Below, piece by piece: positions 16,435-63,507 of a stretch of 64,000 bases of DNA; within the stretch, counting starts at the first letter, position 1, and each line of letters begins with the position of its first letter. The notes beneath the pieces were generated by a model. The model saw only the letters and a program-made list of their open reading frames with translations. It ran no database searches and was not told where the DNA came from. A program made the position numbers and the translations under genes. Origin of the DNA: Candidatus Poribacteria bacterium (GTDB taxonomy: Bacteria > Poribacteria > WGA-4E > WGA-3G); NCBI GenBank assembly GCA_965242965.1, contig OZ251518.1, positions 96,001 through 160,000 of the forward strand, in the 5' to 3' direction.

Positions 16435-16451
16435 GTTTTTACTGGTTCTGC

Positions 16452-32890: not shown

Positions 32891-32897
32891 GCGCGCC

Positions 32898-35006: not shown

Positions 35007-36285
35007 TCTGTTCCCTCGGGTCAAGATAGCCGCTGTACCAGAGTGAGCCCAGGGGCAACTCTTCCTCAACAAGATAGTTCACACCCTGGTCATCGCTTGC
35101 CCGCCGGATTGTGGAAAAACCATCCTCACCCTTATCCAGAATCCAAACCTCTTTCGGACCCAAGGCATCGACAAAGTAGGGCTGGTGCGTCGTCATAAAC
35201 ACCTGCGAACTGCCTTTGCTGCCGTTAGTGCGACTGCGAAATTCCCAGACGAGCGGCTCTAGGAGTTTATGATACAGCCCATCCTCTGGTTCTTCAAGGC
35301 AAAGGAACGGAGGCAGACCCGGGTCTTCCAATAGTAAGAAATATGCCAACAACTTGAGTGTCCCATCGGAAACTTGCTGCGCGTAAAAAGGATCCTGAAA
35401 ACCTTTGTCGTTGAACTTGAGGAGCAACCGGCCATCGCTGGTTTTTTCTGTCTCAATCCGCTCAATGCCGGGAATCTTATCGGCAATCTTTTTGAGAATC
35501 ACCCCGAAACGTTCGGGGTGTTCACGCTCCATGAATTGCACAACGTTGCCCAGATTGTCTCCGTGGCTGTTGAGATGCTTTTGGGAGGATGCCATCGGTA
35601 AACAGCGCGCCGCATCTGGCGTGAAGTAACTGAAATACCATCCCTCAATAAACCGGCAGAGGGAGGAAATTCGCGGATGCCGTTTGAAGGCACCGAGTGT
35701 GGCAATCCCGAGTTTGCGCGGGTTTGCCAATTCGATTGACTCGGGCGAACAGCCTTCTGATGATTTTGCGCATTCCAAGAGATTAACGAAATCCGAAGTC
35801 TCTTCGTCAAATTGGATACCGCACTTTTCACCGTTCCACGCTACACCGATGCCGTTGTGGAGCATGAGGAAAGAAAATGGCTGTCCGCCTTTCTGTCCCT
35901 TTCGCTTCTGCATGAGACGTTCTTGCAGGACATAGGGCCGTCCCATCTTGTCCGCTTCAATAACAAGCTGATACGTGATGGGACGGGCATTGCCGTTTTC
36001 CTTATAGCACACCTCGAACGCAATCGGTTCCGTTGTGCCTTGCGAACGGATTTGCTCAAAGCCGCCGCGTCCACGCGCGACGCAGGCGGCTTCAACCCCC
36101 AATTTCAGCGCATCGGCGAGGAACGCGAGTGCATCAAATAAGGCACTTTTCCCTACTCCGTTTTTGCCGATTACCGCTGTTATCGGCGTGAGTGCTTCTT
36201 TCTTCGCGCCGTTCCACAGGCGCCCTAGGGTTATATCCTTCAGCACCTTGAAGTTGCGCACTCTGAGCCCTTCTAGCCTAGCCAT
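34996..36285 (-). CDS. ABC/AAA_21-type ATPase
   Basis: GKNGVGKS, VSDGT, LEEPE, TTHQP; start MARLE overlaps RND stop. Confidence 0.9.
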   Translation of the reverse strand: MARLEGLRVRNFKVLKDITLGRLWNGAKKEALTPITAVIGKNGVGKSALFDALAFLADALKLGVEAACVARGRGGFEQIRSQGTTEPIAFEVCYKENGNARPITYQLVIEADKMGRPYVLQERLMQKRKGQKGGQPFSFLMLHNGIGVAWNGEKCGIQFDEETSDFVNLLECAKSSEGCSPESIELANPRKLGIATLGAFKRHPRISSLCRFIEGWYFSYFTPDAARCLPMASSQKHLNSHGDNLGNVVQFMEREHPERFGVILKKIADKIPGIERIETEKTSDGRLLLKFNDKGFQDPFYAQQVSDGTLKLLAYFLLLEDPGLPPFLCLEEPEDGLYHKLLEPLVWEFRSRTNGSKGSSQVFMTTHQPYFVDALGPKEVWILDKGEDGFSTIRRASDDQGVNYLVEEELPLGSLWYSGYLDPREQNAL

Positions 36286-39200
36286 TTTCAATTCCTCCCG
36301 CCGGCACCTCAACCGCCGCCGAAACACGCTTCTCTTCCCCGAAGAAGAACTTACGCAAATCAGCGTTAATCGCATACAACGCCGGCATCACGAACAATGT
36401 CATCGTCGTCGCGAAGGCGAGGCCGAAGATGATGGTGTTCGCCATCGGCATCCAAATTGGCGACTTGCCACCGAGGCCGAGTGCCATCGGCACGAGCCCG
36501 AAAATCGTTGTCATTGAAGTCAAAACAATCGGACGCAGACGGACGCTGCCGCCTTTCAAAATCGCATACCATTTGTTATAGCCGCGCTCACGATACCTGT
36601 TGATGAAATCGATGAGAACGATGGAATCGTTCACGACGATGCCCGCAAGCGCAACAATGCCGAACATCGCTACCATGCTGAGCGTCGCATCCGCAAGGAA
36701 CAACCCTACCATCGCGCCTATCATCCCAAACGGAACGGCAAACAGAATGATAACAGGCTGTGTAAACGATTTGAATTGCGCGCCAAGCACCATATAAATG
36801 ACGAGCAGCCCGACTCCAAACAATTTCCACAACTCCGAGAAGGAGTCCCGAACTTCGTCAAATATGCCGCGGAAATCGAGCCGATAGCCCGGATACAGGG
36901 ATTCCACATCCGCGAACGCGCTGATAAGTGTCTGATTGACTTTGACAGCGTTCGTTTTAGTGGTATCTACGGAGGCATACACGGTAATAGCACGTTCACC
37001 GTCAAATCGGCGGATGTCGGAATAGCCTTTCTCCTCTATAATTTCGGCGACATCTTTAAGCGGGATAATCGCCCCAGTCGGTGTCGCAATCAACAAGTTA
37101 TTGAGCGCGTCGAAAGTTCTGAGGCTCTCCTCATCGTATTTGACGATGACATCTATCGCTTCGTCCGCTTCCCGGTATGTTGTCGCTTTCGCTCCTTCAA
37201 CAGCCGTGCGCACAGTCTGCGCGATATGGAGCGTCGTTAACCCGTACTGATGCGCCTTCTCCGATTTCAGGTAAATCCGCAGTTCCGATTTGCCGACGCG
37301 GAAATCGTCTCGGACATCGTAAACGCCGTCCATGTCATCTAATTCGGCTTTCAACACATCGGTGAGCTCCATCAGTTTATCAAACCGCGCTCCTTTGACT
37401 TTCACCTCAACGTCCTGGCCCTGAGGCGGTCCGCCCTCTAATTTGACGTAATTCAGTTTTTCGATGCCGCTAATTCGCGTCGTGTCGCGGCGTAGCGAGG
37501 CGATAACCTCATCTACGTTTCGGGTGCGCTCTTCTTTCGGCGTGAGTTCAACGATAATCTCTCCCAAATTAGAACCGTAACTAACGCTCTCCATGCCGCC
37601 CGATGTCGGCGTATGCAAACCGACATTGCTGACGATGGCCGCGAGCTCCGTTGAAGGCAGTCCTTTGACAACCTCCTCTAACTGCGCGATGACACCGGTT
37701 GTCTCCTGCATTCCGTAAGCCGGCGGCATCTCCGCTTTGAGATAGAATTGCGGGAAATCTTCGCCGGGGAAAAGTTCCTTGTCAAGAACGAGAAACGCGC
37801 TGACGCACGTGATTAAACCGAAGAGCAGGACACACCCGACGAACGCATACCGCCACCGAATCGTCGTCTTCAGGATTTTGACATAGCGGCCCCGCACGGC
37901 ATCAAACCATCGGGTGGAACGTGCCTTCCGGCTTTCCGCCCTTCCCCACTCAGCGACATGCGCCGGCAGGATGACAAACACCTCAAAAAGTGAGGCGATA
38001 AGCACCAAAATCGCCATAATCGGCACGATGCGCATGAATTGCCCCGGAACGCCTGACATAAACATCAGCGGACCGAATGCACCGATAGTTGTTAGACTCG
38101 CGGCGACTACCGGCCACCCGACTTCTTCCGCCCCGCGGATCGCGGCGGCTTTTGGGGAGGCACCCGCCTGAATATGCCGATAGATATTTTCTATCACGAC
38201 GATGGCATCGTCCACAACAATACCGACGACTAAGATAAGTCCAAACAGCGCGACACCACTCAGCGAATAGCCTGTTATCAGCATAAACCAGAACGTCGCC
38301 ATGAACGCCACCGGAATGCCCAAAGCGGCGAACAGCGCGTTCCGCCACCCGATAAAAACGAGCAGCATCAAGACGACAAGCCCCAGTCCAAAGATGGCGT
38401 TCGTCTCCAGAATACCTAACCGCTCCTTCAGGATGACAGAGTAGTCGTTAACCGCTGTCAACTCCGCGCCTTCTGGGAGTCCCGCCTTCCGTTTCTCTAT
38501 CAATTCACGCAGTTGTGCTACCAACGCGATGGTGTTCCCTTCACTCTTTTTTTGAACGCTCAAACTGATTGAGGGTTGTCCATTGATACGTGAGAGTGTT
38601 CGTGCCTCCTCGTAAGTATCCGAAACGGTGGCGATGTCGCGCAGGCGTAACGGCGTGCCGGTAGGCTGCACCCTGATGATGGTTTCGCCGATGGTGTCCG
38701 GGTTGGGAAATTCGCCCATCGTGCGCACCATATATTCTGTCGCTTTCGCCGCCGTCCCGATTTCAATAGTCCCCGCAGGCAGATTTAAATTGCTGGCATT
38801 GAGTGCAAGACTGACAGCCCCAATCGGCAACCGATACGCCTTGAGTTTATCGGCATGCACCTCTATCCAGATTTCCCTTTCGCGGAGTCCGGCTATCTGC
38901 ACAGATGCGATGTTTTTGATGTCTAGGATTTCGTCTTTCAGATTTTCGGCGATAGTCCGCATCCGCGTTTCGGAAATAGTGCCGCCGACGACTACCGTCA
39001 ACATCGGGAAACCAGCAGAGATATCCAACTCCGTAACCTTCGGTTCGTCGAGTATCTCGTCTGGCAGTTCGTTGACTTGTTCAACCGCCGCCCGGAGGTT
39101 TTGAAGCTGCTTATCAAAATCCCGTTCGCTCATTTCTTCAAAATCGACGGAGATGAGAGAGCGTCCTTCCGATGAGGTGGAAAGCATGAGGTTGATTTTG

Positions 39201-39472: not shown

Positions 39473-39829
39473 GGCGGCCGCGGTTAATCCACCGCGGTCG
39501 CCTGTTAGGGCGAGGGACAGGCCCTCGCCACGCGTTTGGTTGGCAAACCGCATCACCCCTGTAGGTCAGGATCGCCTGATCCTGACCCGTTCGGGATCAG
39601 GCGCTCCCGAACTACAGAGGGGGAAACACACATCATGACGATAGAGATCGCGGGGGACAGGCCCCCGCGCTACGAAAAAAACGCCATCCCTTCATCGTAG
39701 GGCGAGGGCCTGTCCCTCGCCATCGTCGGCGCAATTCAACGCTCGCGGGGGACAGGCCCCCGCGCGACGGGCACATCGAGACCGGGAGGTCTCTCCTACC
39801 GGGAAGCCATCGAAATATGAAACCCCCTC
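39473..39829. repeat. Composite repeat cluster with GC hairpin and terminal TIR
   Basis: ggcggccgcggt-taatcc-accgcggtcgcc, REPs, atgaaaccccctc. Confidence 0.8.
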
Positions 39830-39831
39830 AG

Positions 39832-40572
39832 TTACTGTTGCACCGTTTTTAAGTGTCCCCATGTTGTCGCCAATTTTCCGCTAGGTGCGACTGCCAGCGG
39901 CTCAATGCCTTCGCCTTCGACAGAAAGCGTATCTACGAGTAACGTGACGGTCTGGCCGCCCCAGTTGTTCATAAATCCGATGCCGATACGTTCTGCATCG
40001 AACTTATGGTTCCACGTTTTCTCCCCAGCGAGCATCCATTCATCCTTCTCGTTTTCGCGATAGTAGCCCGAGAACACGTCATCCTCTTTGACGATTTTCA
40101 GGTGAAGTGGGGCATCGAACCCGGTTTGCGGGTGCCCCTTATCTTGCCAATTGGCTTTCACCATGCTGCCGATGAGCGTTTTCTGCGGTTGATTCGCTTC
40201 GCCACCAAAGAGAAAACAGGCGTAGTTCAGATTGTCGTCGCTGAAGATGAAAATTCCCATCCACGCGTCGGCGGGTTTATCCGGGTCTGACGTGAAAATC
40301 CCGCTCACGGTGAGATTCTCCGCGGCACTTTTCGGGATGTCCCGTTCCAGCATCGGTTTATCGGGAGTGGTATGCCCCCAGTTGCCCGGATTCGTCATCT
40401 GTAAGAAACCGTCCTTGACTTCATGCTCCGTCTGCTTATTGTTGTGGTCCCGGAATTTCCAGTCCGCAACAAGCTCATTTCCATCAAACGGATCCGTCCA
40501 CACCGCGGCGGACACTGCACCGGCGAATCCTACTATCAGGATACCGATGATGCATATCATAGATTTTTTCAT
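39832..40572 (-). CDS. Secreted ConA/LamG-like (DUF1349-like) protein with KLATTWG C-terminal motif
   Basis: Signal peptide; beta-rich body; ends AVAPSGKLATTWGHLK. Confidence 0.75.
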   Translation of the reverse strand: MKKSMICIIGILIVGFAGAVSAAVWTDPFDGNELVADWKFRDHNNKQTEHEVKDGFLQMTNPGNWGHTTPDKPMLERDIPKSAAENLTVSGIFTSDPDKPADAWMGIFIFSDDNLNYACFLFGGEANQPQKTLIGSMVKANWQDKGHPQTGFDAPLHLKIVKEDDVFSGYYRENEKDEWMLAGEKTWNHKFDAERIGIGFMNNWGGQTVTLLVDTLSVEGEGIEPLAVAPSGKLATTWGHLKTVQQ

Positions 40573-40652: not shown

Positions 40653-41035
40653 GAGGGTGTTTCATAAATCGCCCCCCCCGCCATGCCCGGGGCCATTGAA
40701 CGTTCGCGAGGGACAGGCCCTCGCGCTACGGAATCGGGAAGGCGATTGGGCCCTCGAACGTTCGCGGGGGACAGGCCCCCGCGCTACGATAAAAAACGCT
40801 ATCCCTCACCGTAGGGCGGGGGCCTGTCCCCCGCCATGCTGCGGTCTACTGAAACCTCGCGAGGGACAGGCCCTCGCGCTACGGAATCGGGAAGGCGATT
40901 GGGCCCTCGAACGTTCGCGGGGGACAGGCCCCCGCGCTACGATAAAAAACGCTATCCCTCACCGTAGGGCGGGGGCCTGTCCCCCGCCATGCTGTGGTCT
41001 ACCGAAAACTCGCGAGGGACAGGCCCTCGCGCGAC
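40653..41035. repeat. MITE-type TIR followed by 153-bp tandem duplication of REP modules
   Basis: Units start at 40704, 40857 and 41010 (partial). Confidence 0.88.
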
Positions 41036-44544: not shown

Positions 44545-45116
44545 ATGGCGAGGGGAACCCTCTCGCATGCGCGTGTGGCATCCGAGGGCCCTCGCCCTAC
44601 GTAAAGGGGCGGCGTTTTTTACCGTAGCGCGGGGGCCTGTCCCCCGCGATGGTTCAAGAACCGTTTTTTTTTATCGTAGCGCGGGGGCCTGTCCCCCGCG
44701 ATCTCCAGTGTCAAGAGTCGCGTTTTAGGTCCTTTAGGACCTACATGTCTATAGAAAAACGTGTCGGCACGTTTTCAAGGTCCTTTAGGTCCTTAATAAA
44801 AAAAACGCGCGGACATGGCAAAACCTATTAAGGACCTAAAGGACCTTAGGGTTTTTCGCAGGCGCGCGTGCTATAGACATTAAGGTCCTACGGACCTAAG
44901 AGACGTTATTTCCACCGTAGCGCGGGGGTCTGTCCCCCGCGAGGGTTGGATTGCGCGGGCGATGGCGAGGGACAGGCCCTCGCCCTACGATGAAGGGGGA
45001 CCTTCTGCCGCCGCTGCCCCGGGAGGCGCGCCGCCCTATTGCATCGAGACCGGGAGGTTTCTCCTACGGGTGTGCATCAATACGGGTCAAGATCAGGCGA
45101 TCTTGACCTACAGAGG
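44545..45116. repeat. Composite repeat cluster including a 178-bp foldback element (44720-44897)
   Basis: REPs plus aggtcctttaggacct...aggtcctacggacct element, repeated at 48986-49162. Confidence 0.85.
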
Positions 45117-45165: not shown

Positions 45166-46794
45166 ATGAAAGAAAAAAGAGGGAGGATTCTGTGGATTGA
45201 TAACGGGATTGCCGAACTGAAACCCTATGTCCGTTTTTTGGAATACGAAGGGTATGATGTCTTCTTGACAGACACCGCCGCTGAGGACATCGATTTGCTC
45301 CAAGGCGCGTATGACGCAGTCTTGCTAAACCCTAATCTCCGGATGCAAAACGGGAACCAACTGCTTTCACATATCCGCAGAGAAGACGCGCACATTCCTA
45401 TCGTCCTCGTCACAGACGAAGAGGAAGACGGTGCGCCCTGGCCTGCAATTTTACACGAGGCAGACGAAGTGCTGTTTAGGCCGGGGAGCCCGAAGCAATT
45501 CGCGGCTGCCCTCACGTTCCTGCTTGAAAAGGAGACGATGCGCGAGGCACACATGCCGCAAGCATACGCCGACGATTTCCAGAAACAGTACGCGGGTGCG
45601 CGGGCGGCTACACAAAATGCCTCCACTTCAGAACAACTGCCGCGCAGTCAATGGCAAGCGTGGATAGACACCTACGTCCACCTCGTGGAGTGGGAACTCA
45701 AACTAGACGCGCTTCAAAACGCAGATGAACTGAAAACTATCCATGCATTGGAGAAACGCGAGGCAAACGCCGCGTTCGCCGACTACATTCAGCACACTTA
45801 CACCGACTGGCTTGCAGGCGAAGATTCGCCTACTTTATCCGTGGATGTTTTTCAGAAATCTGTCATCCCGGAAATCCAAGCTGGGAAGCAGGTAATGTTT
45901 GTCATTATCGACTGCATGCGCTTGGACCAGTGGCTGAAAATCGAGCCGATGCTCTATCCGCTGTTCCACATCACGAAGGATTACTACTACTCCATCGTGC
46001 CGACAGCCACCCGTTACGCACGGAACGCCATTTTCAGCGGGCTGTTTCCGTTGGAATTGGTGGCGCGGTATCCCGAATTTTGTAGGGATTCATCGCGCGG
46101 AACGGCTTCGGTGCCGGAATCGCAGATTAACACGAACCGCTACGAGAAGGAGCTCATGCGCCAGCAGTTGGAACGGCACGGGATACTGCTCAAGCCTTCT
46201 CCGCACTACTTCAAAATTTTTGATACCCGCGGGGAGAAACACTACTTTGAGTGGCTCACCGAGATGCAACAGGTTAGCCTTGCGGCGTTAGTCATCGATT
46301 TTTTGGATATGTTGACGCATACCCGAAGCGAAGTTGAAGTGTTGCAGCAACTTATCCCCGATGAAACGGCGTTCCGAACGCTCATGCAAGCGTGGTTTCA
46401 GCATTCATCGCTATACAGAATGCTACGCATCGCTGCAGAACGCGGCATCACCGTCGTTTTAACATCCGACCACGGTTCAGTCCGCTGTCAAAACGCAGCC
46501 AAAATATCAAGCCGCCACAAACTCACCTCCGGGCTGCGGTTTAAAGAGGGCAAAAACATTGATTGCCCACCGGAAGCCGGCATGCTCATTAAAACGCCGA
46601 CGGCGTATGGGCTCCCCGGTGAAGCGGAAGGCAAGCACTACATCGCTGCGAAAGAAGAATACTATTTCGTTTACGAACCGCAGTTTAAGGACTATCAGGA
46701 ACGCTTCCTTGACAGCTTCCAACACGGCGGTATCTCACTTGAAGAGATGATTTTGCCGTGTGTCGTGCTTGAGCCGAGGAGACATCACCGGTAA
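45166..46794 (+). CDS. PorX-like response regulator / PglZ alkaline-phosphatase-superfamily protein (degenerate receiver)
   Basis: ILWID..LKP, IDCMRLDQW, PTATRYARNAIFSG, DMLTH, TSDHG, FQHGGISLEEM. Confidence 0.85.
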   Translation: MKEKRGRILWIDNGIAELKPYVRFLEYEGYDVFLTDTAAEDIDLLQGAYDAVLLNPNLRMQNGNQLLSHIRREDAHIPIVLVTDEEEDGAPWPAILHEADEVLFRPGSPKQFAAALTFLLEKETMREAHMPQAYADDFQKQYAGARAATQNASTSEQLPRSQWQAWIDTYVHLVEWELKLDALQNADELKTIHALEKREANAAFADYIQHTYTDWLAGEDSPTLSVDVFQKSVIPEIQAGKQVMFVIIDCMRLDQWLKIEPMLYPLFHITKDYYYSIVPTATRYARNAIFSGLFPLELVARYPEFCRDSSRGTASVPESQINTNRYEKELMRQQLERHGILLKPSPHYFKIFDTRGEKHYFEWLTEMQQVSLAALVIDFLDMLTHTRSEVEVLQQLIPDETAFRTLMQAWFQHSSLYRMLRIAAERGITVVLTSDHGSVRCQNAAKISSRHKLTSGLRFKEGKNIDCPPEAGMLIKTPTAYGLPGEAEGKHYIAAKEEYYFVYEPQFKDYQERFLDSFQHGGISLEEMILPCVVLEPRRHHR

Positions 46795-46950: not shown

Positions 46951-48810
46951 ATGAAAACGCTGACACGTTGGAGTTTGATGCTTACCGCAGTTATTTCGTT
47001 CAACGCGTGGGGACAATTCGGAGACTTTAGCCTCTCCGGCACCGCACCAACCCCCACAATTCGCGCGGACGGATACCTTTCGGTAGATAAAGTGCACCCC
47101 GGCAGTCAATTCCAAATCGCCATCGTTGTGGAGATTGACAAAGGCTGGCACATCAACGCGAATCCTGCGGGTGAGAATCTTATCGCGACAGAAGTGCTGC
47201 TGCCAGAGGATGCGCCGAACGTCACCTTCGGCGAAGTCGTTTATCCGGCAGGTGAGGTGATGAACCTCGCCTCGCTTGGGCTTGTCCCGCTCTATCACGA
47301 TACCATCACTATCGGAATTCAGGCGGATTTGCTTCAAACCGCACCGATTCAAACACAAACGCTGGCGTTCAAACTGCGCTATCAGGCGTGTAATGACGAT
47401 GTTTGCCTGTTACCTGACGAACTCTCTGTCGCAGTTCCGCTCACGGTTGTCGGTATGGAGTCAACCGTTCAGCCAATAAACGATGCGGTTTTCGCCAGCA
47501 TCGCGTTCGGCGCGTCGTCTGGCTCTGGTGAAGATGAAGGGGCACTCTCTCGCGCTATCGCCGGTGGGCAACTCTGGCTCGCGTTCCTGATTGTGTTCGC
47601 CGGCGGCATCCTCACCAGTTTGACACCTTGTGTCTATCCGCTCATTCCTATCACTGTCTCAATTTTAGGGGTGGACGAGTCAGCCGGGTTTCTCAAATCG
47701 CTTCTCCTTGCAGTCGTTTACGTTCTCGGCATTGTCATTACATATTCCATTTTAGGTGTGGCGGTGGCATCGACAGGTGCGGTTTTCGGGCAAATTATGG
47801 CGAACCCCTGGGTCATCGGCAGTATTAGTCTCATCCTCGTCATGCTAGGGATGTCCATGCTTGGCGTTTTTGAATTTCGCTTGCCATACGCAATCCAGAA
47901 TCGCCTCAACACTGTCGGAGGTGCAGGATATGCAGGCGCGTTCGCGATGGGAACCGTCGCCGGTGTCATCGCTGCACCTTGCACCGGTCCCGCGCTCGCC
48001 GTCGTTTTAACTTATATTGCGACGACAGGAAGCCTCTTCCTCGGCTTTTGGCTTATGTTCACCTACGCGCTCGGCATGGGGATGCTTTTCATCGGTTACG
48101 CCGTCGGCATGGGGCTGGTATTTATGGGAGTCCGTTCATTCTCCGGCATTATTGCCGCGCTGCCACGCTCCGGCGGATGGATGTATGTTCTGGAGAATCT
48201 CCTCGGCATTTCGGTTATCACGCTGGCACTCTATTTCCTCAAAGATGTTGTAGCACCGTTCCAAGCGTTCCTTCAGAATTCACCGCAATTCTTTGCCATC
48301 GCTGGCGGGCTCATCATCGTTGGGCTTTGGCTGAGCAAGTTGAACGAACGTTTCAACAGCATCCCGCGCCCCATGCAAATCCGAAAAGCGTGTGGGGTGT
48401 TGCTCACTGTGCTAGGCGCGTATATGGTTGTCGGCGGACTTCAGCAACCCGCGGGACCGCAACTTGACTGGGTGGATACTGAGACTGCCGGGCTTGAGAT
48501 TGCCAAGCGCGAGGACAAATTGGTGATGCTTGACTTTTACGCATCTTGGTGCGCCGCCTGCAACGAGTTGGACCACAAAACCTACGCTGACCCGGGTGTC
48601 GCCGCTAAACTTGATAACTACGTCAATGTTAAACTTGATTTCACTCGCAGTTCTGAAACCACAAAGGCACTCACGGAGAAGTATCAGATTCCTGGGTTGC
48701 CCGTTGTTATTTTCATGGATGCGGAAGGCACTATCCTCAAGCGGCTCACTGGGTTCGTCGGGCCGGAGGAGATGCTTGCTATCCTTGAGGAAGTTGAACA
48801 GCGGCGATGA
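46951..48810 (+). CDS. dsbD: Thiol:disulfide interchange protein DsbD
   Basis: YQACND..C, SLTPCVYP, AAPCTGP, C-terminal thioredoxin WCAAC. Confidence 0.93.
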   Translation: MKTLTRWSLMLTAVISFNAWGQFGDFSLSGTAPTPTIRADGYLSVDKVHPGSQFQIAIVVEIDKGWHINANPAGENLIATEVLLPEDAPNVTFGEVVYPAGEVMNLASLGLVPLYHDTITIGIQADLLQTAPIQTQTLAFKLRYQACNDDVCLLPDELSVAVPLTVVGMESTVQPINDAVFASIAFGASSGSGEDEGALSRAIAGGQLWLAFLIVFAGGILTSLTPCVYPLIPITVSILGVDESAGFLKSLLLAVVYVLGIVITYSILGVAVASTGAVFGQIMANPWVIGSISLILVMLGMSMLGVFEFRLPYAIQNRLNTVGGAGYAGAFAMGTVAGVIAAPCTGPALAVVLTYIATTGSLFLGFWLMFTYALGMGMLFIGYAVGMGLVFMGVRSFSGIIAALPRSGGWMYVLENLLGISVITLALYFLKDVVAPFQAFLQNSPQFFAIAGGLIIVGLWLSKLNERFNSIPRPMQIRKACGVLLTVLGAYMVVGGLQQPAGPQLDWVDTETAGLEIAKREDKLVMLDFYASWCAACNELDHKTYADPGVAAKLDNYVNVKLDFTRSSETTKALTEKYQIPGLPVVIFMDAEGTILKRLTGFVGPEEMLAILEEVEQRR

Positions 48811-48853
48811 TGCGTTGGCCTAGCGAGGGACAGGCCCTCGCCCTACGGTAACT

Positions 48854-49309
48854 GAGGGTGTTTCATAAATCAATGTCTTCCCGGTAGGAGAGACCTCCTG
48901 GTCTCGATGGCTCTTGGGTGGGAGAGACCTCCCGCTCCCTGTAGCGCGGGGGCCTGTCCCCCGCGATCTCCATCGGCAAGCGGCGGCGTTTTAGGTCCTT
49001 TAGGACCTACATGTCTATAGAAAAACGTGCCGGCACGTTTTCAAGGTCCTTTAGGTCCTTAATAAAAAACCACGCGAACCTGGCAAAACCTATTAAGGAC
49101 CTAAAGGACCTTAGGGTTCTTTGCGGGCGCGCATGCTATAGACATTAAGGTCCTACGGACCTGAAGAGGACAATGGCAAGGGACAGGTTTTCCCACCGCC
49201 CCACGTGAAGGGGAGGCGTTTTTTTCATCGCAGCGCGCGGCCCTCGGATGCCACACGCGCATCCGAGCGGGTTTCCCCCGCGACGTTGGACGATTTATGA
49301 AACCCCCGC
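48854..49309. mobile_element. MITE, 456 bp, TIR GAGGGTGTTTCATAAATC, 9-bp TSD ACGGTAACT
   Basis: acggtaact(48845-53)|gagggtgtttcataaatc ... gatttatgaaacccccgc|acggtaact(49310-18). Confidence 0.85.
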
Positions 49310-49353
49310 ACGGTAACTGATGGAAATTGAACAGAGGAGGTAAAGAGACTCAC

Positions 49354-50409
49354 ATGATTAAATCACTTTCACCGAGCCGATTGCACCGCTGGCTTTTCTA
49401 CGCAGAGGGGCTCGCAATCATCGTCTTTGTCGTGTTAGCCGCGATGTTCATCCGCAGAGGTGGTGCCGAACCGGAATCGCCGCCGGTTTCTCAAGTTGAA
49501 ACCTTCATTGAGAAAGCGGACGCGCGCTTTGAGCAGCAGGACATGGTGGGTGCAGTCCTCCTCTATTGGCAGGCACTTCATGCACTCGAAGGCGATGCGC
49601 GCCCCGAGGACGCGTCTATCCGCGTGCATGCGAATCTCCGCATCGCCGAGATTTACTCGCAAAGCAGTTGGCTGAAGGACGCAAAGGCACGCTTGGAATA
49701 CGCCGAACGCCTTGACTCCGAACATGAAGGCGTGCGTCTCTTACGCGGGAAACTCTACCGCGACGAAGGCCTGCCCGCCGAAGCCGCCGAGCAATTTTTG
49801 GCTGTCCTGAAAAAGAATCCCGACAACGCCGAGGCACACTACCTGCTCGGTGTTCTCTATCAGGCAAGCAAGCAGTTTAAAGAGGCTACCACGCACTACG
49901 CAAAGGCGATTGAAAGCGACTCGGGGTTGCAGGAAATCCCCTCCGAAAAAGCACCTATCGGCATTCTGGCGCGGCTGCAGCTGTCCCGAACCTATAGCCG
50001 AATGCTTCAAAACTATCAATTCCTTGACAGGGAGTTCACAAATGAAGATATGGTGGAGATTGCGCGGCTTGAATCGCAGGCTATTCTCCTCTTGGAAGAG
50101 GCTTATGCCAAGCATCCGGAACTCAATGAAATCAGCGATGACTTGATTCGGTTGCTCTTCGCCCGCGCCGCCGGCCTTGAACGCGAGGCGGAAACCCGTC
50201 CTTACGCCGACGCGCTTGAAGTCTACGAACGCATTGTGCAACTTGACCCGGGGGAAGTCCGCGCATGGGAACGGATGGGCGAAATTTACGCCGGCTTCCT
50301 TGACGATAAGGCAGCCGCGCTTGAAATGTATCGCAAAGTTTATGAACTTGAACCGCACCCCACGGTCTTGGCGAATATCAAATCGCTTGAGGAAGACCTG
50401 GGGGAATGA
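49354..50409 (+). CDS. Membrane-anchored TPR protein
   Basis: N-terminal TM; TPRs such as NPDNAEAHYLLGVLY; GGAGG SD. Confidence 0.85.
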   Translation: MIKSLSPSRLHRWLFYAEGLAIIVFVVLAAMFIRRGGAEPESPPVSQVETFIEKADARFEQQDMVGAVLLYWQALHALEGDARPEDASIRVHANLRIAEIYSQSSWLKDAKARLEYAERLDSEHEGVRLLRGKLYRDEGLPAEAAEQFLAVLKKNPDNAEAHYLLGVLYQASKQFKEATTHYAKAIESDSGLQEIPSEKAPIGILARLQLSRTYSRMLQNYQFLDREFTNEDMVEIARLESQAILLLEEAYAKHPELNEISDDLIRLLFARAAGLEREAETRPYADALEVYERIVQLDPGEVRAWERMGEIYAGFLDDKAAALEMYRKVYELEPHPTVLANIKSLEEDLGE

Positions 50410-50417
50410 ATTAGAAT

Positions 50418-50580
50418 GAGGGTGTTTCAGAACTCCGTTTCGGTAGTTATCCCGCCTTGGAGGGCTGGCGAATACCGGAAGGCATCGGGCCCCCGTCTGT
50501 AGTTCGGGAGCGCCCGCTCCCGAACGGGTCAGGATCAGGCGATCCTGACCTACAGGGGTAGCGATTTATGAAACACCCTC
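50418..50580. mobile_element. MITE, 163 bp, TIR GAGGGTGTTTCA, 9-bp TSD AATTAGAAT
   Basis: aattagaat(50409-17)|gagggtgtttcag ... tatgaaacaccctc|aattagaat(50581-89). Confidence 0.9.
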
Positions 50581-50599
50581 AATTAGAATAGGAGCCCTT

Positions 50600-52099
50600 A
50601 TGACACTACAATCCTATCCCGGCGCACTCTATTTTGGCGATAACCTCAACGTCATGCGAGAGATGCAAACGGGGAGTTATCATATCTGTTACCTCGATCC
50701 GCCTTACAACAGCGGGCGCAACTACAACATCTTCCTCGCCGGCTCCAAAGCGCAACGCAAAGTGTTTGACGACATCTGGCGGTGGGACGATGCGGCGCGC
50801 TACAATCAGGATGCTGTCCTTCACTACGATGGACTGCACCCCGAACTCGTTGAAACGATGGACAATTTGTCAGACTGTTTAAGCGGTTTTGACAACATTT
50901 TGAAGGGTAAAAGAGTCAGTGAGGCAGACTCAATGCGTGCCTACCTCGCCTTCATGGCACCGCGCTTGGCAGAGATTTGGCGGTTGCTAACGCCGGAGGG
51001 GAGCGTGTATTTGCACTGCGATCCGCACGCCAGCCACTACCTGAAATGCCTGATGGATGCGATTTTCGGCACTGCGAATTTCAGGAACGAGATTGTCTGG
51101 TGCTACACTGGCCCAGGTTCGCCGAAGATGCGTCAGTTCAACCGCAAGCACGATACCATCCTCTGGTATTCAAAGGGCAAAACTTGGACGTTCAATAGGG
51201 ACGAGGTCCGCCTGCCCCACAAAGGTGGCAAACCTCACACGGGTGGTTTCAAAGGCGGCGGCCGGCCGATTAACGACGAGTATTATGCACAGAAGGGAAA
51301 AATTCCTGAAACGTGGTGGTCAGATATCGCTGTTGCTGTCCGCTCGTCCAAGGAACGCCTCGGCTATCCGACGCAGAAACCGCTGAAGCTGCTGGAGCGC
51401 ATCATCAAAGCCTCTTCCAATCCGGGCGACATCGTCTTCGATCCGTTTTGTGGTTGTGGCACGGCGTTAGATGCGGCGCACGGCCTCAAACGGCGTTGGG
51501 TAGGCATCGATCTGACGGTGCTCGCTTTAGAACCGATGGAGCGTCGGCTTCGCGAACGCCATGGGCTTGTCCCGAAAGTGGACTATCACATCGAGGGATA
51601 TCCGACGACGCGTCAAGACGCGCTTCTCCTCGCCGAGCGAAACCCGAACGACTTTGCGAATTGGGCAGTTACCCGATTAGGACTCGCGCCAACGCCGAAT
51701 AGTAAAGATGGCGGGTTTGATGGCACGGGGAAGATTACGCTTTGGGAAAACAGGCACCTCGCCGAGGCGGCACAGACGAAACTTCCGATTATCGCCGAGG
51801 TGAAATCGGGGAGGAGTCTGAACCCGAATCAGGTGCGTGCCTTCCGCACGGCGATGCGAGACAACGATGCGGCACTCGGGATTTTCATCACCTTGCACGA
51901 AGTCACGCGTGGCATGCGCAACCTCGCGGAAGAGGAAGGCTTTCTTGAGCATAACGGGAAACGTTATCCGCGCTTGCAGTTTTGGCAAGTCACGGACAGT
52001 TATTTTGAGGATGGGCGGGTGCCAGTCAATTTACCGTGGCAAATCGATGAGCGTCCGAAGGCGGCGCGTCATTACGGCGGGGAGCAGACGTATTTTTGA
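50600..52099 (+). CDS. N4/N6 DNA methyltransferase (beta class) fused to Mrr-like endonuclease domain
   Basis: GDNL, YLDPPY, NEIVW.Y, YPTQKP, DPFCGCGT, then DGGFDG..EVKSG. Confidence 0.9.
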   Translation: MTLQSYPGALYFGDNLNVMREMQTGSYHICYLDPPYNSGRNYNIFLAGSKAQRKVFDDIWRWDDAARYNQDAVLHYDGLHPELVETMDNLSDCLSGFDNILKGKRVSEADSMRAYLAFMAPRLAEIWRLLTPEGSVYLHCDPHASHYLKCLMDAIFGTANFRNEIVWCYTGPGSPKMRQFNRKHDTILWYSKGKTWTFNRDEVRLPHKGGKPHTGGFKGGGRPINDEYYAQKGKIPETWWSDIAVAVRSSKERLGYPTQKPLKLLERIIKASSNPGDIVFDPFCGCGTALDAAHGLKRRWVGIDLTVLALEPMERRLRERHGLVPKVDYHIEGYPTTRQDALLLAERNPNDFANWAVTRLGLAPTPNSKDGGFDGTGKITLWENRHLAEAAQTKLPIIAEVKSGRSLNPNQVRAFRTAMRDNDAALGIFITLHEVTRGMRNLAEEEGFLEHNGKRYPRLQFWQVTDSYFEDGRVPVNLPWQIDERPKAARHYGGEQTYF

Positions 52100-52535
52100 G
52101 CAGGATTTCCAAGATTAACAGGTAGGAGGGACATCCTTGTCCCGATAGCCACATCAACAAAATGCATCGAGACCGGGAGGTCTCTCCTACGGGGACATGG
52201 CTTGCTCGGTATTTGCCCCTAATCGGGATAACTGAGGGTGTTTCATAAATCGCTCAACAAGGGGCCGTTTTTTTCACCGTAGCGCCGGGGCCTGTCCCCC
52301 GCGATTGTTGGGGTGTGCGAACGCTGGCAAGGGACAGGCCCTCGCCCTACGGTGACTGAGCCGTCCTCCTCTGTAGGTCAAGCTCGTCTGAAGCTCTGGC
52401 AGATTTGCCAAGCGGTCTTGACCTGTTCGGGAGCAGGTGCTCCCGAACTACGGTCTCTCGCATGCGCGATGCATCGAGACCAGGAGGTCTCTCCTACGGT
52501 GACATCGCTGGCTCGGTATTCGCCCCTAATCGGGA
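52097..52535. repeat. Composite repeat cluster with about 65-bp direct repeat (52163 / 52471) and MITE-type TIR at 52234
   Basis: gcatcgagacc.ggaggtctctcctacgg..gctcggtatt.gcccctaatcggga twice. Confidence 0.8.
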
Positions 52536-52549
52536 AAATTCGGTATCAA

Positions 52550-55467: not shown

Positions 55468-58400
55468 TTAGGAAACCTCCAACCATGCGATGAGTTTCAA
55501 TTTTGTTCCAAGTGGAGCTTGGATACTTAGTAAATAGGTTCTTTCAATGTAGCGCTCAATTTGCCGCCGTGCTTTTTTAACAACTTGCTGTCCGCTTACG
55601 GCATAGCGGGACGCGTTATCGCCGCATCGAACTTCGGGCCAAATGCCTTCAAGATCTGTAACGACTTCATCCGTATCAGAGTTGTAGAAATACCAGCGGA
55701 TTTCCCCACTTTCTGGCATTTCATAGCAACAGAAAACTCCCCTCGCCCTAGCACGATTCAGGGATATCTGTTCACCGTTCCGGTCGACAAGTAGCGGAGG
55801 TTCCTCAGAGGCACGTTTGCCTGAGAAAATACGTAGAGGTAAATCCTCCAATCGTCTCCACAGGCTCGGCTTCGCTTCAGCAATGCGTTGCCGTTCAAGA
55901 TTCATGAGTTCTTCAACGCTTTCCGTTCCCTCATATCGCTCATTGAAGAGCTGGAGAGTTTGATCTGCATCATCAGGGGAAACAAACTGTCCTTCAATAC
56001 CGAGGGTTCGATTGATGCGAAGAATTTTTCCATCAACGCGTCTTCGGATCTTAATGAGATCTTCAAGTTCCTGAGGTGGAAGGAAGTTCCAAACATGAAC
56101 TTCTGGATCCGTGCGATTGAGTTGAACTTCAATATCGGGGTTAAGCCGTCTATCAAGCCTACCAATCCGTTGCATAAGTCGGACAGGGTTCCAATGCAAA
56201 TCGTAATTAATAACCCGTGAGGCATCCTGCAGGTTCAGCCCTTCGGCAAGGACATCGGTTGTAATCAGGATGCGAATCGGCCTAGCAGGTGGTGCGCTCT
56301 CTCCGTTGTAGTAAGGGGAAAAGCGTTTGACGACATCTTCACGGTTGACTTTCCGCTGACTATCAATTTGCTCAACGTGATGGAACCCGAAGTTTCGTAA
56401 CTGGCTATAGAGGTAGCGGGCGGTATCCGAAAATTCGGTGAAAACGATGAACTTCTCATCCGGATCTTCTTTCAACAGACCTAGGAGTTGGCGCAACTTA
56501 TCGTCCTTCGCTGCATCCGGTTCCTGCGCGAACTGGTCCGCGTAGAATCGACAATAAATTCCGCTGAGGAGTCGAGTCAAAAACTCCATATCCTTTACAA
56601 CATCATCCAAGAAATTATCCAGATTATGTTCGCTAGAATCGAAGTCTTTTAGAGTTCCGACAGAAACGATGTCGTTTTCCTCTTCGTCCGGATTTCGTTC
56701 AATTTGCCTTTGCAAATTTTCCGGACCTACCACAGGTTGGCTACCTTCATCACCGTCTTCACGTAGACGTTCTGATACGTGGTCTTGCACAACCTGCCAC
56801 CAGCGGCGGTTGGTAACGGCCCATTCGTCAAAACGTTCAGGCGCGTATCTTCTGAGCGATGCTGCCATCTTGACAAGCAACTTTTCGACACTTACCTCAA
56901 AGGATTTCCACGAACTTTCTAACCGTTTGAGCAAGAGCGTCCGGATGAGCCCGATGACCTGGGTTTGGCGGTGTTCCATCTGTCTTTCGGGGTTTCTATG
57001 ATACTTAGCCGTATTATAAACGGCCAAGGTAAGAAAAGGATCTTGCCTGTTGAAAGCGATTTGGAGTTCCTGATAAAGGTTAGCATACACCTCACGAAGC
57101 GAATATTCTACAATAGGGTAGATAGTGCGAGCCGGAAAGAGAATTTCTCGCCCTGCCCGTTCTTCTGCATCCTTAATATATTTGCGACTGCGCTGAACGA
57201 GGACATGCTTAAGAACCGGGTCTTGGCGAATCAGGTCATCCTCGCCGAATGAATGGAAATGTTCTTCAACATCAGCCTCGCTGCCAATCTGCCTTTCAAG
57301 CTCACGAAAATGGCGACGGAAATCGTGAATTCCGATTTGAGCGAAGTGCTTCCCCTTCTGCTGTGCAAAATAGTTAATCAAATGGGAGATATCCTCAATG
57401 GAATTATTGATCGGTGTTGCCGTGAGCAGATAGAGTTTCTTCGATTTAGCGAGAGCCATCAAAGCCCTACCGCGGTTTGACCCAGGGTTGCGAAAGTGGT
57501 GAGCTTCATCAATGATGATAACATCCTTGTGTTCCCGCAAGTACTCAAACTCTTGCTCATTAATTCCACCCTCTCGGCCAAGATCTGTATGGCGTTTGAT
57601 GTCGTAGAGTTCACGGTAGCGACGGCCGTATTTGGCCCTAAGATACTGAGGAACAAGGGGTTCCCATACGCTCTCAGCGACGGATTTAGGAGCAATGAGT
57701 AGGACACGCTTGTCGTCCCTCAGCGAACGTTCAAGCAACATCAAGCCGATATAGGTTTTTCCACTACCGACTCCATCACAAATCAAAGACCCATTCCATT
57801 TTTCGGCTATCTGTAGTGCTCGGTGGTAGCCATCCTTTTGGTACTGCGAAAGCATACGGTAGATAACAGATTCGTTTTCTTCCCATTCGTCCGCTGGTTT
57901 TTCACGTCCAGCGAAATAGGAATGAAGTGCTTTTGCGTAAACGGTAAATGGACGGTATCTTCTGAGGTGTGGTTCAATGACTCTGAGAATTTCAGGTTGA
58001 ACATCCGATGCTTCATCCCACCAATTTTCGTACGAGTCCTGAAGGTGCGCAATTTGCGTTGAATCCTGAAGGAATAAATTGGACTCAACATTCTTGGCGA
58101 GTCCCGCTGGAGTGAAGTTTGAACTGCCGTGAATAGCAAAGGGTCCTAAACTCTGATTGTGCGAACGCATCAGAGTAAAATTGGCATGAAACCCATTATA
58201 GACCCGGATCTGTATGCTGCCGCTGCTAATAGCTTTCCTCACAGAAGCGAGATGCTCAAGAGTCAGAAAATCGTTCTTCTCCTTTTCGGACTCTAGGTTA
58301 TCGCGGGTAACCTGCTGCAAAGCCTCTATCAGCTGCTCTTTTGTACGCCCCGTAGTTTCATTGCCTATGAGGATACGAACAGCACCGAGGTGTTGCCACG

Positions 58401-58539
58401 TTTTCGCAAGCAATAGAAACGCCCCAATCTCAAAAGTTCCTGTAGCAACATCCAATTCGTTGCTTTTTGGGAGAAGAGTTTTAAGGGCAGCGAGAACAGT
58501 ATTCCCATCTACGTTGTTAATCTGGAAAGGTATTTGCAT
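55468..58539 (-). CDS. PLD-domain SNF2/DEAH helicase (R-M/DISARM-type)
   Basis: DVATG.F, GSSNFT, DGVGSGKT, IDEAH, LTATP.NN, VFTEF.DTA, TDVLAEGLNLQ, NYDLHWNP.RL.QRIGRLDR; start MQIPF. Confidence 0.9.
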   Translation of the reverse strand: MQIPFQINNVDGNTVLAALKTLLPKSNELDVATGTFEIGAFLLLAKTWQHLGAVRILIGNETTGRTKEQLIEALQQVTRDNLESEKEKNDFLTLEHLASVRKAISSGSIQIRVYNGFHANFTLMRSHNQSLGPFAIHGSSNFTPAGLAKNVESNLFLQDSTQIAHLQDSYENWWDEASDVQPEILRVIEPHLRRYRPFTVYAKALHSYFAGREKPADEWEENESVIYRMLSQYQKDGYHRALQIAEKWNGSLICDGVGSGKTYIGLMLLERSLRDDKRVLLIAPKSVAESVWEPLVPQYLRAKYGRRYRELYDIKRHTDLGREGGINEQEFEYLREHKDVIIIDEAHHFRNPGSNRGRALMALAKSKKLYLLTATPINNSIEDISHLINYFAQQKGKHFAQIGIHDFRRHFRELERQIGSEADVEEHFHSFGEDDLIRQDPVLKHVLVQRSRKYIKDAEERAGREILFPARTIYPIVEYSLREVYANLYQELQIAFNRQDPFLTLAVYNTAKYHRNPERQMEHRQTQVIGLIRTLLLKRLESSWKSFEVSVEKLLVKMAASLRRYAPERFDEWAVTNRRWWQVVQDHVSERLREDGDEGSQPVVGPENLQRQIERNPDEEENDIVSVGTLKDFDSSEHNLDNFLDDVVKDMEFLTRLLSGIYCRFYADQFAQEPDAAKDDKLRQLLGLLKEDPDEKFIVFTEFSDTARYLYSQLRNFGFHHVEQIDSQRKVNREDVVKRFSPYYNGESAPPARPIRILITTDVLAEGLNLQDASRVINYDLHWNPVRLMQRIGRLDRRLNPDIEVQLNRTDPEVHVWNFLPPQELEDLIKIRRRVDGKILRINRTLGIEGQFVSPDDADQTLQLFNERYEGTESVEELMNLERQRIAEAKPSLWRRLEDLPLRIFSGKRASEEPPLLVDRNGEQISLNRARARGVFCCYEMPESGEIRWYFYNSDTDEVVTDLEGIWPEVRCGDNASRYAVSGQQVVKKARRQIERYIERTYLLSIQAPLGTKLKLIAWLEVS

Positions 58540-58639
58540 ATTAACCCCATAGTTTGGACAATTTGCATCAAAGGATTCGCGTTGAGCTATCCAAGTGACA
58601 GCGGCGTATATTGCGAATTTCGTCTCTTTCAAGGATATG

Positions 58640-58662
58640 AAAAAACTCATCACGTAATGAGT
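58640..58662 (-). terminator. Putative intrinsic terminator upstream of helicase
   Basis: GACTCATTACGTGATGAG followed by TTTTTT. Confidence 0.45.
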
Positions 58663-58876
58663 CCCTAAAGGCTGACATGAGACGAATGAACTCCTACGGA
58701 GTTGCAGCACTGAATCGCAAGTTTCCAGCCCACAAGTTAACTGCCTCCGCTTCTGAGTTCCGGGTTGTGACGCGATGGAAAACGGCGCGTCATCTCTTAA
58801 CGAACGCGATAGCCCGAGTGCCGCCCTTCCGTGGCGACCGTTCACGAACCAGCGCGCAATTGATAACGTATTAGAT

Positions 58877-58985
58877 AGGATACCATAAAAACGCAAAATT
58901 GGCAACCCAACGACAAACGTTTGCCGAAATTTCGTTAATACGCCATCAACATCTTTATTCTACCAAAAATTGCAATGTGTGTCAA
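58877..58985 (-). promoter_or_regulatory. Two tandem sigma-70-like promoters
   Basis: TTGACA-17-TAGAAT (58985-58957) and TTGCCA-17-TATCCT (58905-58877), both with TG extension. Confidence 0.45.
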
Positions 58986-61805: not shown

Positions 61806-62300
61806 CTATTTGATATTGAGAGCCTTTGCGAGATTCCCTTCATAACTGCATCGCGTTGTCTGAATCGGCAATTTCGCGCCGCGGAAATTCACCGAAGAAC
61901 GTTTCAGTTTCTCGTTCTGTCTGCTTTGAACCCTCTTGCTGCCATGGATAAGGACAGGGATACAATCCGTTTTGACATTCCTCGGCACCAACCGATTGAC
62001 AATGTGTGCTCCTTCTTGCAATTGCCTGACGACTTCCGATGCGTCAACGTCGCCTTGCTTGAGTTCCATTGGCACAGCCACGAGAGTGTCTTGGCGAGTG
62101 TAAAAGAGGATAAAATCGCATTGCGCTTTCACCGCTCTATCCGTTGGGAAGGCAAGATCGACATCTAATACCACTCGCTCGCGCGGGAGGTTCGCGAGCG
62201 AAACACGGCACCCGTTTCGCGTGTAAGAGGTAGCTACCCTTTCGCCTATCCACCGGCGAATCTGGTTAAGCGCGTCACGCGGATTCACGTTTGCTACCAC
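61806..62300 (-). CDS. Hypothetical protein with PD-(D/E)XK-like motif, partner of AAA ATPase
   Basis: CDFILF..ELK....QL; overlaps ATPase 3' end. Confidence 0.65.
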   Translation of the reverse strand: MVANVNPRDALNQIRRWIGERVATSYTRNGCRVSLANLPRERVVLDVDLAFPTDRAVKAQCDFILFYTRQDTLVAVPMELKQGDVDASEVVRQLQEGAHIVNRLVPRNVKTDCIPVLIHGSKRVQSRQNEKLKRSSVNFRGAKLPIQTTRCSYEGNLAKALNIK

Positions 62301-63507
62301 CTTCCCCGTTTTCCACCCGGGCTTGGAGATTCACCATACGATTATACTGTGTTTCCGCAACGTCCCCGTAGTCTACTGGGTAGACACCTCCCCATACCTC
62401 AAACGGAATTTCCGTAACAGGTGTATCTTTTTGGAATTGCCATGCGCCCACTTCCGAGGGCATCAGCCAACTCGCAGGGGTATCATCTGTCTTGGCAAGT
62501 AGCCCTTCAAGCATCAGACAACTTAATTCCTCAAGCAGCCAATCGCTGTGTGTCGTCGCGATGACTTTCACGCCAGCACGGACGAGGCGCGCGAGCGTAA
62601 CTGCCAGGTCTGCCTGGGATTGCGGATGCAGGTGCGCCTCCGGTTCCTCAATAACGAGCAGATCCCCCGGGGCAAGCCCTCGTCGGAGAAAAAGGACTAA
62701 CGGCGCGAGCTCGGATACCATTGCCGAGGCATGGCTCAATCGCATCTCTTCTTCCACGCCTTGCGGACGATAACGGAAATCGGGATACCCAGTCGGCGAA
62801 AGCCGCGCGAGAATCTTTCCACCGAGGATATCAGTCTCTAACGCATCGGCGATTGCGTTCATGTCGCCGTTGCTCATCTTTTTGTCCGGCCGGTAAAGGA
62901 TAAGACGCTGTAGGAATTCTGCCATGCCTGCCGAAAATGTTGACACTTCCGAGAAACGTCCGCCGCGAGTAGCACGCCCAATCAGCGAACTGGCGATGAG
63001 CCCATGCTGCTGAATCAGGCCACTGCGAATTGCTGGTAGATAACACCGTTGCCCGCTAAAATAGGGGGAGAGGGGCTCTGCGCTTCTTCCCTCTTTTTTA
63101 TTCTCGGAAAGTTCCCGCGTGAGTGACCACTCTGATGCCGAGGCAGTCAACTTGAGACTCCAGTCGTCCTTATCATCTTCTGAACGTGCCTGCAGCGAAA
63201 CCACCATTTCCGAAGAAAGTTTTTCCGCATTCAATCGCCGCAATGCCGAAACGGAAGGCAGATCGAAGCAATTTTTCAGTTCTGCTTGTAATGCATCCCG
63301 GAGCGTGTCTTCAGGCGAGCGCGCCTCCAATTCCGCAAATACGCCTTGCAAGGCATATACCAACGTTGAGAACCAGGTCTTCCCGGTGTTGCTCGCACCG
63401 ACGCACACCGTCAGCGGCCGTAAATCAATGACGGCTTCTGTAATCGGACCGAGGTTGCGGACAGCGATTTCAACTTTTGGATGCTGTTGTGTGTCCATAG
63501 CACTCAT
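62275..63507 (-). CDS. AAA_15/AAA_21-type ATPase
   Basis: NLGPI, GASNTGKT, YLPA.RSG, IEEPEAHLHP, TTHS. Confidence 0.88.
   Translation of the reverse strand: MSAMDTQQHPKVEIAVRNLGPITEAVIDLRPLTVCVGASNTGKTWFSTLVYALQGVFAELEARSPEDTLRDALQAELKNCFDLPSVSALRRLNAEKLSSEMVVSLQARSEDDKDDWSLKLTASASEWSLTRELSENKKEGRSAEPLSPYFSGQRCYLPAIRSGLIQQHGLIASSLIGRATRGGRFSEVSTFSAGMAEFLQRLILYRPDKKMSNGDMNAIADALETDILGGKILARLSPTGYPDFRYRPQGVEEEMRLSHASAMVSELAPLVLFLRRGLAPGDLLVIEEPEAHLHPQSQADLAVTLARLVRAGVKVIATTHSDWLLEELSCLMLEGLLAKTDDTPASWLMPSEVGAWQFQKDTPVTEIPFEVWGGVYPVDYGDVAETQYNRMVNLQARVENGEGGSKRESA

Follow-up and report, generated by a model that had tools for sequence, protein, structure and literature searches.

A 163-bp MITE with a perfect 9-bp target-site duplication and an interior of REP-type hairpins in Candidatus Poribacteria

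Within a 64-kb stretch of a Candidatus Poribacteria contig, the whole of which is here called the window, a 163-bp element at positions 50418-50580 is a MITE with an autonomous relative, an IS known from related genomes. It is regarded as a real MITE with such a relative because its ends match those of the IS and its flanking duplication resembles the IS target. By convention, MITEs and REPs are kept apart as repeat classes with different enzymes and dynamics: a MITE appears and disappears along with its IS, and REPINs are regarded as long-lived and passed on vertically. Judged from its sequence, the element would be a modest variation on known elements, namely a MITE whose interior is REPs, and we find it probable, if by no means assured, that this REP-filled composite was transported as a unit by a DDE event. 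An element joining MITE and REP in this manner would demonstrate that an unrelated transposase is able to move REPs, with complications for both repeat classification and REPIN population models.

The element opens with GAGGGTGTTTCA (50418-50429) and closes with its reverse complement (50569-50580), giving perfect terminal inverted repeats of 12 bp, or of 13 bp if the adjoining T/A is included, and the repeat finder extended these ends to a 19-nt inverted repeat at 89% (50417-50435 / 50563-50581). Flush against both ends was a 9-bp perfect direct repeat, AATTAGAAT, at 50409-50417 on the left and 50581-50589 on the right; REP/RAYT insertion is not known to produce such a duplication. The left terminal inverted repeat (50418-50434, plus strand), with 12 nt perfect versus the right end and 15/17 positions in agreement with the inverted repeat (IR) of the Poribacteria IS described below, is followed by an imperfect hairpin with a GTAG tag, which is subterminal and here called the 'A-type' end (50441-50477, plus strand), by an 11-nt leader, GCATCGGGCCC (50482-50492, plus strand), which lies 5' of the REP doublet in TIR-linked copies, and then by an inverted doublet of REPs. 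REP 1 (50499-50525, plus strand) has a GTAG tag and an 11-bp perfect stem (GTTCGGGAGCG / CGCTCCCGAAC), and REP 2 (50527-50553), whose GTAG tag lies on the minus strand, has a 10-bp perfect stem (GGTCAGGATC / GATCCTGACC). The right terminal inverted repeat (50564-50580, minus strand) agreed with the IS inverted repeat at 17/17 positions. The repeat finder also returned the two doublet stems, which are different sequences, as perfect hairpins (50502-12 / 50515-25 and 50527-36 / 50541-50), and the pair is bracketed by CTGTAG ... CTACAG, so that GTAG precedes each hairpin on opposite strands with the tags directed outward. Only 17-20 nt per end derive from the IS, with the hairpin, leader and inverted doublet making up the remainder. 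No ORF of at least 60 aa was found inside the element, which is trivial at 163 bp, and a search of the whole 64-kb window against Rfam gave two tRNAs only, with no match at the element.

The insertion had split a tight gene junction, leaving both reading frames untouched. Upstream lies a TPR-repeat gene (49327-50409), the last base of whose TGA is the first base of the left duplication, and the right duplication is directly followed by the ribosome-binding site AGGAG and by the ATG (50600) of a gene encoding N6/N4 DNA-methylase and Mrr-type nuclease domains; taking away the element and one copy of the duplication leaves a stop-to-start spacing of 18 nt. For the flanking genes this means 172 extra strongly folding bases in a former 18-nt operon junction, the single-stranded DNA fold of the element being -47.9 kcal/mol (z = -7.5), a value equalled in 0 of 200 shuffles. 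Because a promoter and terminator scan of 48700-50800 found none within the element, we limit any regulatory claim to the fold, from which any effect on the flanking genes would presumably come.

Hairpins are the dominant repeat of the window, with 69 perfect ones having a stem of at least 8 bp as compared to 5-10 in five simulations, and a GTAG tag was found on 50 of the 69. The hairpins belong to a few families and form arrays in most intergenic regions, and REP-type hairpins also occur in frame within a coding ORF. Very dense REP and MITE content is hereby documented in Poribacteria. Copies of the doublet differ by compensatory stem changes. It was also observed that REP arrays duplicate in tandem, as with a 153-bp unit at 40705-41031, and that a direct repeat of ~75 bp brackets the REP array at 52234. 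GTAG REPs are linked to HUH/Y1 RAYT enzymes, a REP family normally being tied to a single-copy HUH transposase; no Y1_Tnp or RAYT gene was found among the 70 window ORFs scanned with Pfam. The preliminary description had assigned the GTAG hairpins inside the element to the REPs, and this assignment held, for they belong to a REP-type family of very high abundance and fit the definition given in PMC3733652, by which a REP is a 20-40 nt palindrome carrying GTAG at one of its ends.

The autonomous partner was found when the 18-mer end GAGGGTGTTTCATAAATC was searched against genome contigs, where the counts represent samples and not totals. This end was present at 37 loci at least, and 36 of those listed were in MAGs from many species of Candidatus Poribacteria. 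One locus in Porphyromonadaceae (L032) was considered a chance match to the 18-mer in a large collection and was left out of the flank profile given below. Among the matches listed, inverted pairs of the end lay 1105-1112 bp apart in 9 of the 37 loci, which defines an IS of ~1.11 kb whose two ends have 17 nt in common (17-bp IR), enclosing an ORF that in locus L028 spans 2028-3089 and encodes 353 aa, with a range of 332-353 aa in the family. The L028 ORF just passed the cut-off of Pfam PF13612 DDE_Tnp_1_3 (27.5 bits, cut-off 27), and it scored 46 bits (E = 4.8e-12) against NCBIfam IS982 NF033520, for which the cut-off is 130. From these matches the partner appears to be an IS982/IS5-like DDE element, only distantly so, and since it scores below the curated IS982 cut-off it would fall outside that family by that measure. 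Typical of the IS982 family is a length of about 1 kb with one ORF, short IRs and a short duplication; the Poribacteria IS has 1105-1112 bp, one ORF, a 17-bp IR and 8-bp duplications.

As judged by tblastn, the IS ORF was whole in seven of the nine copies and broken in two. One genome held two IS copies with 99.7% identity, and another held two that scored equally against the query; such near-identical copies within genomes suggest recent IS activity. The transposase family had 966 relatives at E<=1e-3, typically of ~332 aa and many on contigs of ~1.1 kb, the only public name among them being 'hypothetical protein', and a tblastn search of 72,556 plasmids gave one weak relative (31%), annotated 'transposase', on a Spirosoma plasmid. 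Derivatives of graded length were also found (683, 404 and 210 bp). Sixteen of the 37 listed loci end within ~240 bp inside the IS, and the IS and REP repeats visibly break short-read assemblies. In the 64-kb window itself, no transposase or fragment of one was detected by tblastn with the IS ORF (best E = 1.5). The terminal inverted repeats together with the target-site duplication had earlier been taken as the signature of a DDE-type MITE, which was borne out by the finding in related Poribacteria of an autonomous ~1.1-kb IS that encodes a DDE transposase and has matching ends. An undescribed IS family is thereby documented in an uncultured sponge-symbiont phylum.

Target-site duplications were measured directly at the 12-mer end, with L027, which is the L012 element and its flanks in another MAG, counted once. 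For the full-length IS copies (n=9), five duplications were 8/8, one was 7/8 and three were 5/8, the perfect ones being AAATAACT (at two different sites), AATTAAAT, AATTAATT and AATATAAT. The short derivatives gave 8/8 for L012 (210 bp), 7/8 for L035 (404 bp), 6/8 for L004 (683 bp) and 0/8 for L015 (263 bp), the last with a 9-bp repeat displaced 6 nt from the end. Taken together, 6 of the 13 pairs in other genomes were 8/8, 2 were 7/8 and 5 were poor (0/8 to 6/8). Both of the window pairs were 9/9, with AATTAGAAT at 50418-50580 and ACGGTAACT around 48854-49309, these duplications thus having 9 bp versus 8 bp for the perfect ones in other genomes. A lack of duplications at other pairs of the ends would speak against the DDE reading, and it was not what we found, since other pairs do carry them. 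The target profile obtained from 36 outer flanks was A[AG]TTAA[TC]T, AT-rich and with T at position -1 in 36/36; with T invariably at -1, the repeat may equally be read as a 13-bp end whose duplication is shorter by 2 bp. Both AATTAGAAT and the TAACT of ACGGTAACT agree with the 3' half of this profile.

The window contained seven exact copies of the 12-mer end, and 11 with at most two mismatches versus 4.76 expected (0/100 shuffles reached 11). Two of the ends bound a second complete REP-filled element of 456 bp (48854-49309; 48845-49318 with duplications; plus strand), which has its own 9-bp duplication at 48845-53 and 49310-18 but an interior different from that of the 163-bp element, with a nested palindromic repeat at 48992-49150, and a diverged right end (GCGGGGGTTTCA). 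The site at which this second element inserted was a REP tail (ACGGTAACT). The copy closest to the 163-bp element, with which it shares 83% identity across 158 nt, was one-ended (28273-28425, minus strand) and comprised a TIR at 28414, the A-type hairpin, the leader and the REP doublet, without a second TIR; its first bases provide the stop codon of an Ldh_2 gene (28424-29428). A further one-ended relative (2857-3078, plus strand) had a diverged end, GAAGGGGTTTCA, another REP pair, the leader with the doublet, and a third REP. Six of the ten TIR-like ends in the window were solo ends capping REP arrays, as seen at 33350-33361 (minus strand; array 32896-33361), at 39818-39829 (minus strand, one mismatch; array 39478-39829), directly after the stop of the gene at 39832-40572, at 40653-40664 (plus strand; array 40653-41031) and at 52234-52245 (plus strand; array 52234-52470). 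None of the six solo ends had a partner end or a second copy of its flank within 1.2 kb, allowing one mismatch, and their outer flanks agreed with the IS target profile (TAAC[TC]).

All window copies had 18-20 nt of IS sequence and then the first REP, and the ends at 33350, 39818 and 48854 had one identical end-to-REP junction. The A-type hairpin occurred in the window only beside an end (2/2, i.e. in the element at 50418 and the copy at 28414), and the leader GCATCGGGCCC was found in the TIR-linked copies at 50418, 28414 and L015, with a variant at 2857. The order of end, hairpin, leader and doublet recurred at 28414 and in L015, and at 2857 with a different first REP. Locus L015 is a complete, end-bounded element of 263 bp in another Poribacteria MAG, having the same order with the addition of a third REP; its right part was 87% identical to positions 49170-49310 of the window, and it was the only locus among the matches listed that shared the REP families of the window. 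None of the loci listed overlapped the window, and an ortholog of the insertion site was not found among them; L015 alone shares repeats with the window. The REP doublet was 85.6% and 83.1% identical to the end-adjacent copies and 85.5% identical to a copy ~200 nt from an end; with end-adjacent copies thus being no closer, this identity is no proof of common descent of the composite. The same doublet was also present far from any end, and L012 (210 bp) is a REP-free MITE with the same ends.

The sequences show how the element is built, that an IS has matching ends, that duplications flank the pairs and that the composite recurs, and from this we propose the following course of events. The ends of the element are those of a ~1.11-kb Poribacteria IS encoding one DDE transposase, and this transposase would, acting in trans, bind both ends and excise or copy the element. 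Staggered cuts in the target, the repair of which gives a target-site duplication, are a feature of DDE transposition, and insertion by such cuts into an AT-rich target of 8-9 bp, followed by repair of the stagger, would have produced the duplicated AATTAGAAT. The element would have landed in the 18-nt gap between the TPR stop and the methylase/Mrr start, leaving frames and ribosome-binding site intact. Its interior holds nothing from the IS, consisting instead of three GTAG-tagged REP-type hairpins of the families found in most intergenic regions, and the composite (end, hairpin, leader, REP doublet, end) was most likely pre-assembled before landing; if so, the REPs would have been copied as passengers of the DDE event. 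A small family of REP-filled MITEs would then exist in the genome of the window and in the MAG of L015, many members of which may since have lost one end via rearrangement among the abundant REPs. Mobilisation in trans and the order of these events are what we infer from the sequences, as would be any present-day activity of the MITE.

Three other origins were weighed. An accidental one, in which a motif common in intergenic DNA happened to be present as two unrelated, inverted copies beside an accidental direct repeat, is very unlikely and can almost be dismissed, even with the 12-mer end being common in the window (seven exact copies) and with AATTAGAAT occurring twice or more anywhere in 7/100 shuffles. 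In the 64-kb window AATTAGAAT was found just as the two flank copies (0.51 expected), and these abut both ends exactly; with the ends fixed, 9/9 identity of the abutting flanks has a probability by chance of ~4^-9. A scan for structures in which perfect inverted repeats, at least 11 bp long and spaced by 40-1500 bp, abut direct repeats of at least 7 bp found the 163-bp element as the sole match in the window, and gave one match in 30 Markov-simulated windows. The second window pair was likewise 9/9, and the ends match those of a real IS. It is also improbable, in our judgement, that the IS end is itself the passenger, with end-plus-REP modules being spread or shuffled, in the manner of the enterobacterial BIME mosaics, through recombination of REP arrays or the action of the REP machinery, so that here, as a rare case, two of them face each other. 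Such shuffling would agree with 6/10 ends capping REP arrays as solo ends that lack duplications, with the tandem array duplication (153-bp unit, 40705-41031) and with the ~75-bp direct repeat around the 52234 array, but it leaves unexplained both the perfect 9/9 duplications at the two complete pairs and the outer flanks of solo ends matching the IS target profile (TAAC[TC]).

The remaining alternative, which we regard as rather unlikely, is that of a nested insertion, where a REP-free or different MITE made the 9-bp duplication and REPs invaded it later by their usual mechanism. Because REPs occur in almost all intergenic regions, and even in an ORF, an invasion of this kind would be unremarkable; the duplication would be retained whichever event came first, the REP-free L012 MITE of 210 bp has the same ends, and the doublet is no more alike among end-adjacent copies than to others. 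What speaks for a composite assembled beforehand, and against such later invasion, is that end, hairpin, leader and doublet recur in order and orientation at four places, including one in a different MAG, that the A-type hairpin and the leader were found only beside an end, and that three further ends had one identical end-to-REP junction, as independent invasions or deletions would not halt 18-20 nt from the end every time. That REPs rode inside a DDE MITE is plausible because of the REP interior of the element, the second REP-filled element and the L015 homologue. The preliminary description had envisaged REPs hitch-hiking inside a non-autonomous DDE element as a two-tier mobility system, and the parts of this idea that stood were the DDE MITE and the genuine REPs; what speaks against its simple two-tier form is that 6/10 ends are solo and that the doublet also occurs far from ends.

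We also consider, as a tentative possibility, that DDE IS ends and GTAG REPs have fused into composite modules multiplying as units in this Poribacteria lineage. If that were true, the ~10 ends per 64 kb would imply hundreds of modules per genome, and a REP family otherwise tied to a tyrosine (HUH) enzyme would have acquired DDE transposition as an additional way of spreading. In the opposite direction, REP arrays could keep IS ends as their caps well beyond the loss of the IS itself.

In the literature searched we found no report of a MITE with a REP interior, nor of these repeats in Poribacteria, and REPs inside a MITE were not found in the available sections of PMC3733652 and PMC3184786. 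Several known systems are nonetheless related to the element. IS-derived MITEs of bacteria, among which PMC3733652 names RUP, NEMIS/Correia, ERIC and Nezha, and MITEAba12 (PMC6382973) share with it a small size, the absence of an ORF, TIRs matching an IS, a TSD, an intergenic site beside gene ends and a strong fold; unlike these, the 163-bp element keeps only 17-20 nt of the IS ends, and its interior is made up of independently living GTAG REP hairpins. With the IS982 family and IS5-like ISs, the Poribacteria IS has in common a length of ~1.1 kb, a single ORF, short IRs, a match to PF13612 and weak matches to the NCBIfam IS982 and IS5 models, whereas it lies far under the NCBI cut-off for IS982 (46 vs 130 bits). 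The REP/REPIN and RAYT systems and BIME mosaics, as described in PMC3733652, PMC3184786, PMC3337134, PMC3116915 and PMC2817692, share with the repeats found here hairpins of 20-30 nt, the GTAG tag, a density of hundreds per genome, inverted doublets and clusters of alternating orientation with conserved linkers; in contrast to them, the doublet here sits between DDE-type inverted repeats that a 9-bp duplication flanks, and its two arms differ. Finally, a physical association of IS and REP is also known from ISs that target REPs, such as IS1397, IS621 and IS1594 (Tobes and Pareja 2006, cited by PMC3184786) and ISPpu9 (PMC12288879), and one of the two complete window elements likewise sits in a REP tail; those ISs, however, insert into REPs, while in the present case the element encloses its REPs and has an AT-rich 8-9-mer, rather than the hairpin, as target.

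Among the 37 matches listed from the scan for ends of the insertion sequence (IS, about 1.11 kb in Poribacteria genomes), there were 16 loci in short-read metagenome-assembled genomes (MAGs) at which the contig stops no more than about 240 bp into the IS (L002, L003, L007, L008, L014, L022, L029, L031, L037 and others), and the IS therefore often breaks contigs in Poribacteria assemblies. One 210-bp REP-free MITE derived from the IS was found in two different MAGs (L012 and L027), where it has the same flanks and the same GATTAAAT duplication; either the shared insertion predates the split of both MAGs or one population was sampled twice.

Within the window, the array of REPs (GTAG-tagged palindromic hairpins) at 40705-41031, headed by a solo IS end without its partner at 40653, was found to be a tandem duplication with a period of 153 bp, having two full units of three REPs each together with the first REP of a third, which shows that tandem duplication is an additional way in which REP arrays in the window grow. 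Another array, headed by a solo end at 52234, lies between the two copies of a direct repeat roughly 75 bp long (52160-52233 and 52470-52545) that contains a REP and a CGGTATT..GCCCCTAATCGGGA motif similar to the subterminal hairpin of the 163-bp REP-filled MITE. A separate repeat family, with a TAGGTCCTTTAGGACCTA hairpin followed by CATGTCTATAG and a AAAACGTG hairpin, has two copies in the window (48992-49150 and 44726-44775), the former nested within the 456-bp REP-filled element, and may represent another small mobile element.

Defence-type genes were abundant in the domain scan of window ORFs (14538-16455, 21126-24203, 34347-36375, 45166-46794, 50600-52099, 55468-58905 and 62275-63507). 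These were two pairs of an AAA_21/AAA_15 ATPase with DUF4276, another ATPase of this type for which DUF4276 gave no match, a Type ISP restriction-modification enzyme, a PglZ-domain response regulator, a methylase-Mrr fusion and a SNF2 helicase that also carries a PLD nuclease domain.

In two places (28424-28426 and 39832-39834), an end of the element family coincides with a stop codon or directly follows one. The TGA stop of an Ldh_2 gene (28424-29428) spans the junction between flank and element end, and the TAA stop of the gene at 39832-40572 falls within the TAACT target; insertions of this family may have reshaped C-termini. REP sequences moreover lie in frame within a 471-aa ORF having a PALP (pyridoxal-phosphate enzyme) domain by Pfam (26785-28200, minus strand). 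Two such REPs occur in its N-terminal region (about 27975-28075), where the peptide WRGTGPRPT appears twice, and a longer REP block, roughly 60 residues in length, falls within the PALP domain (about 27130-27300), the Pfam match being broken into two stretches. These in-frame REPs look like protein-coding palindromes of the kind known as RPE in Rickettsia, or else like the product of a mis-joined ORF.
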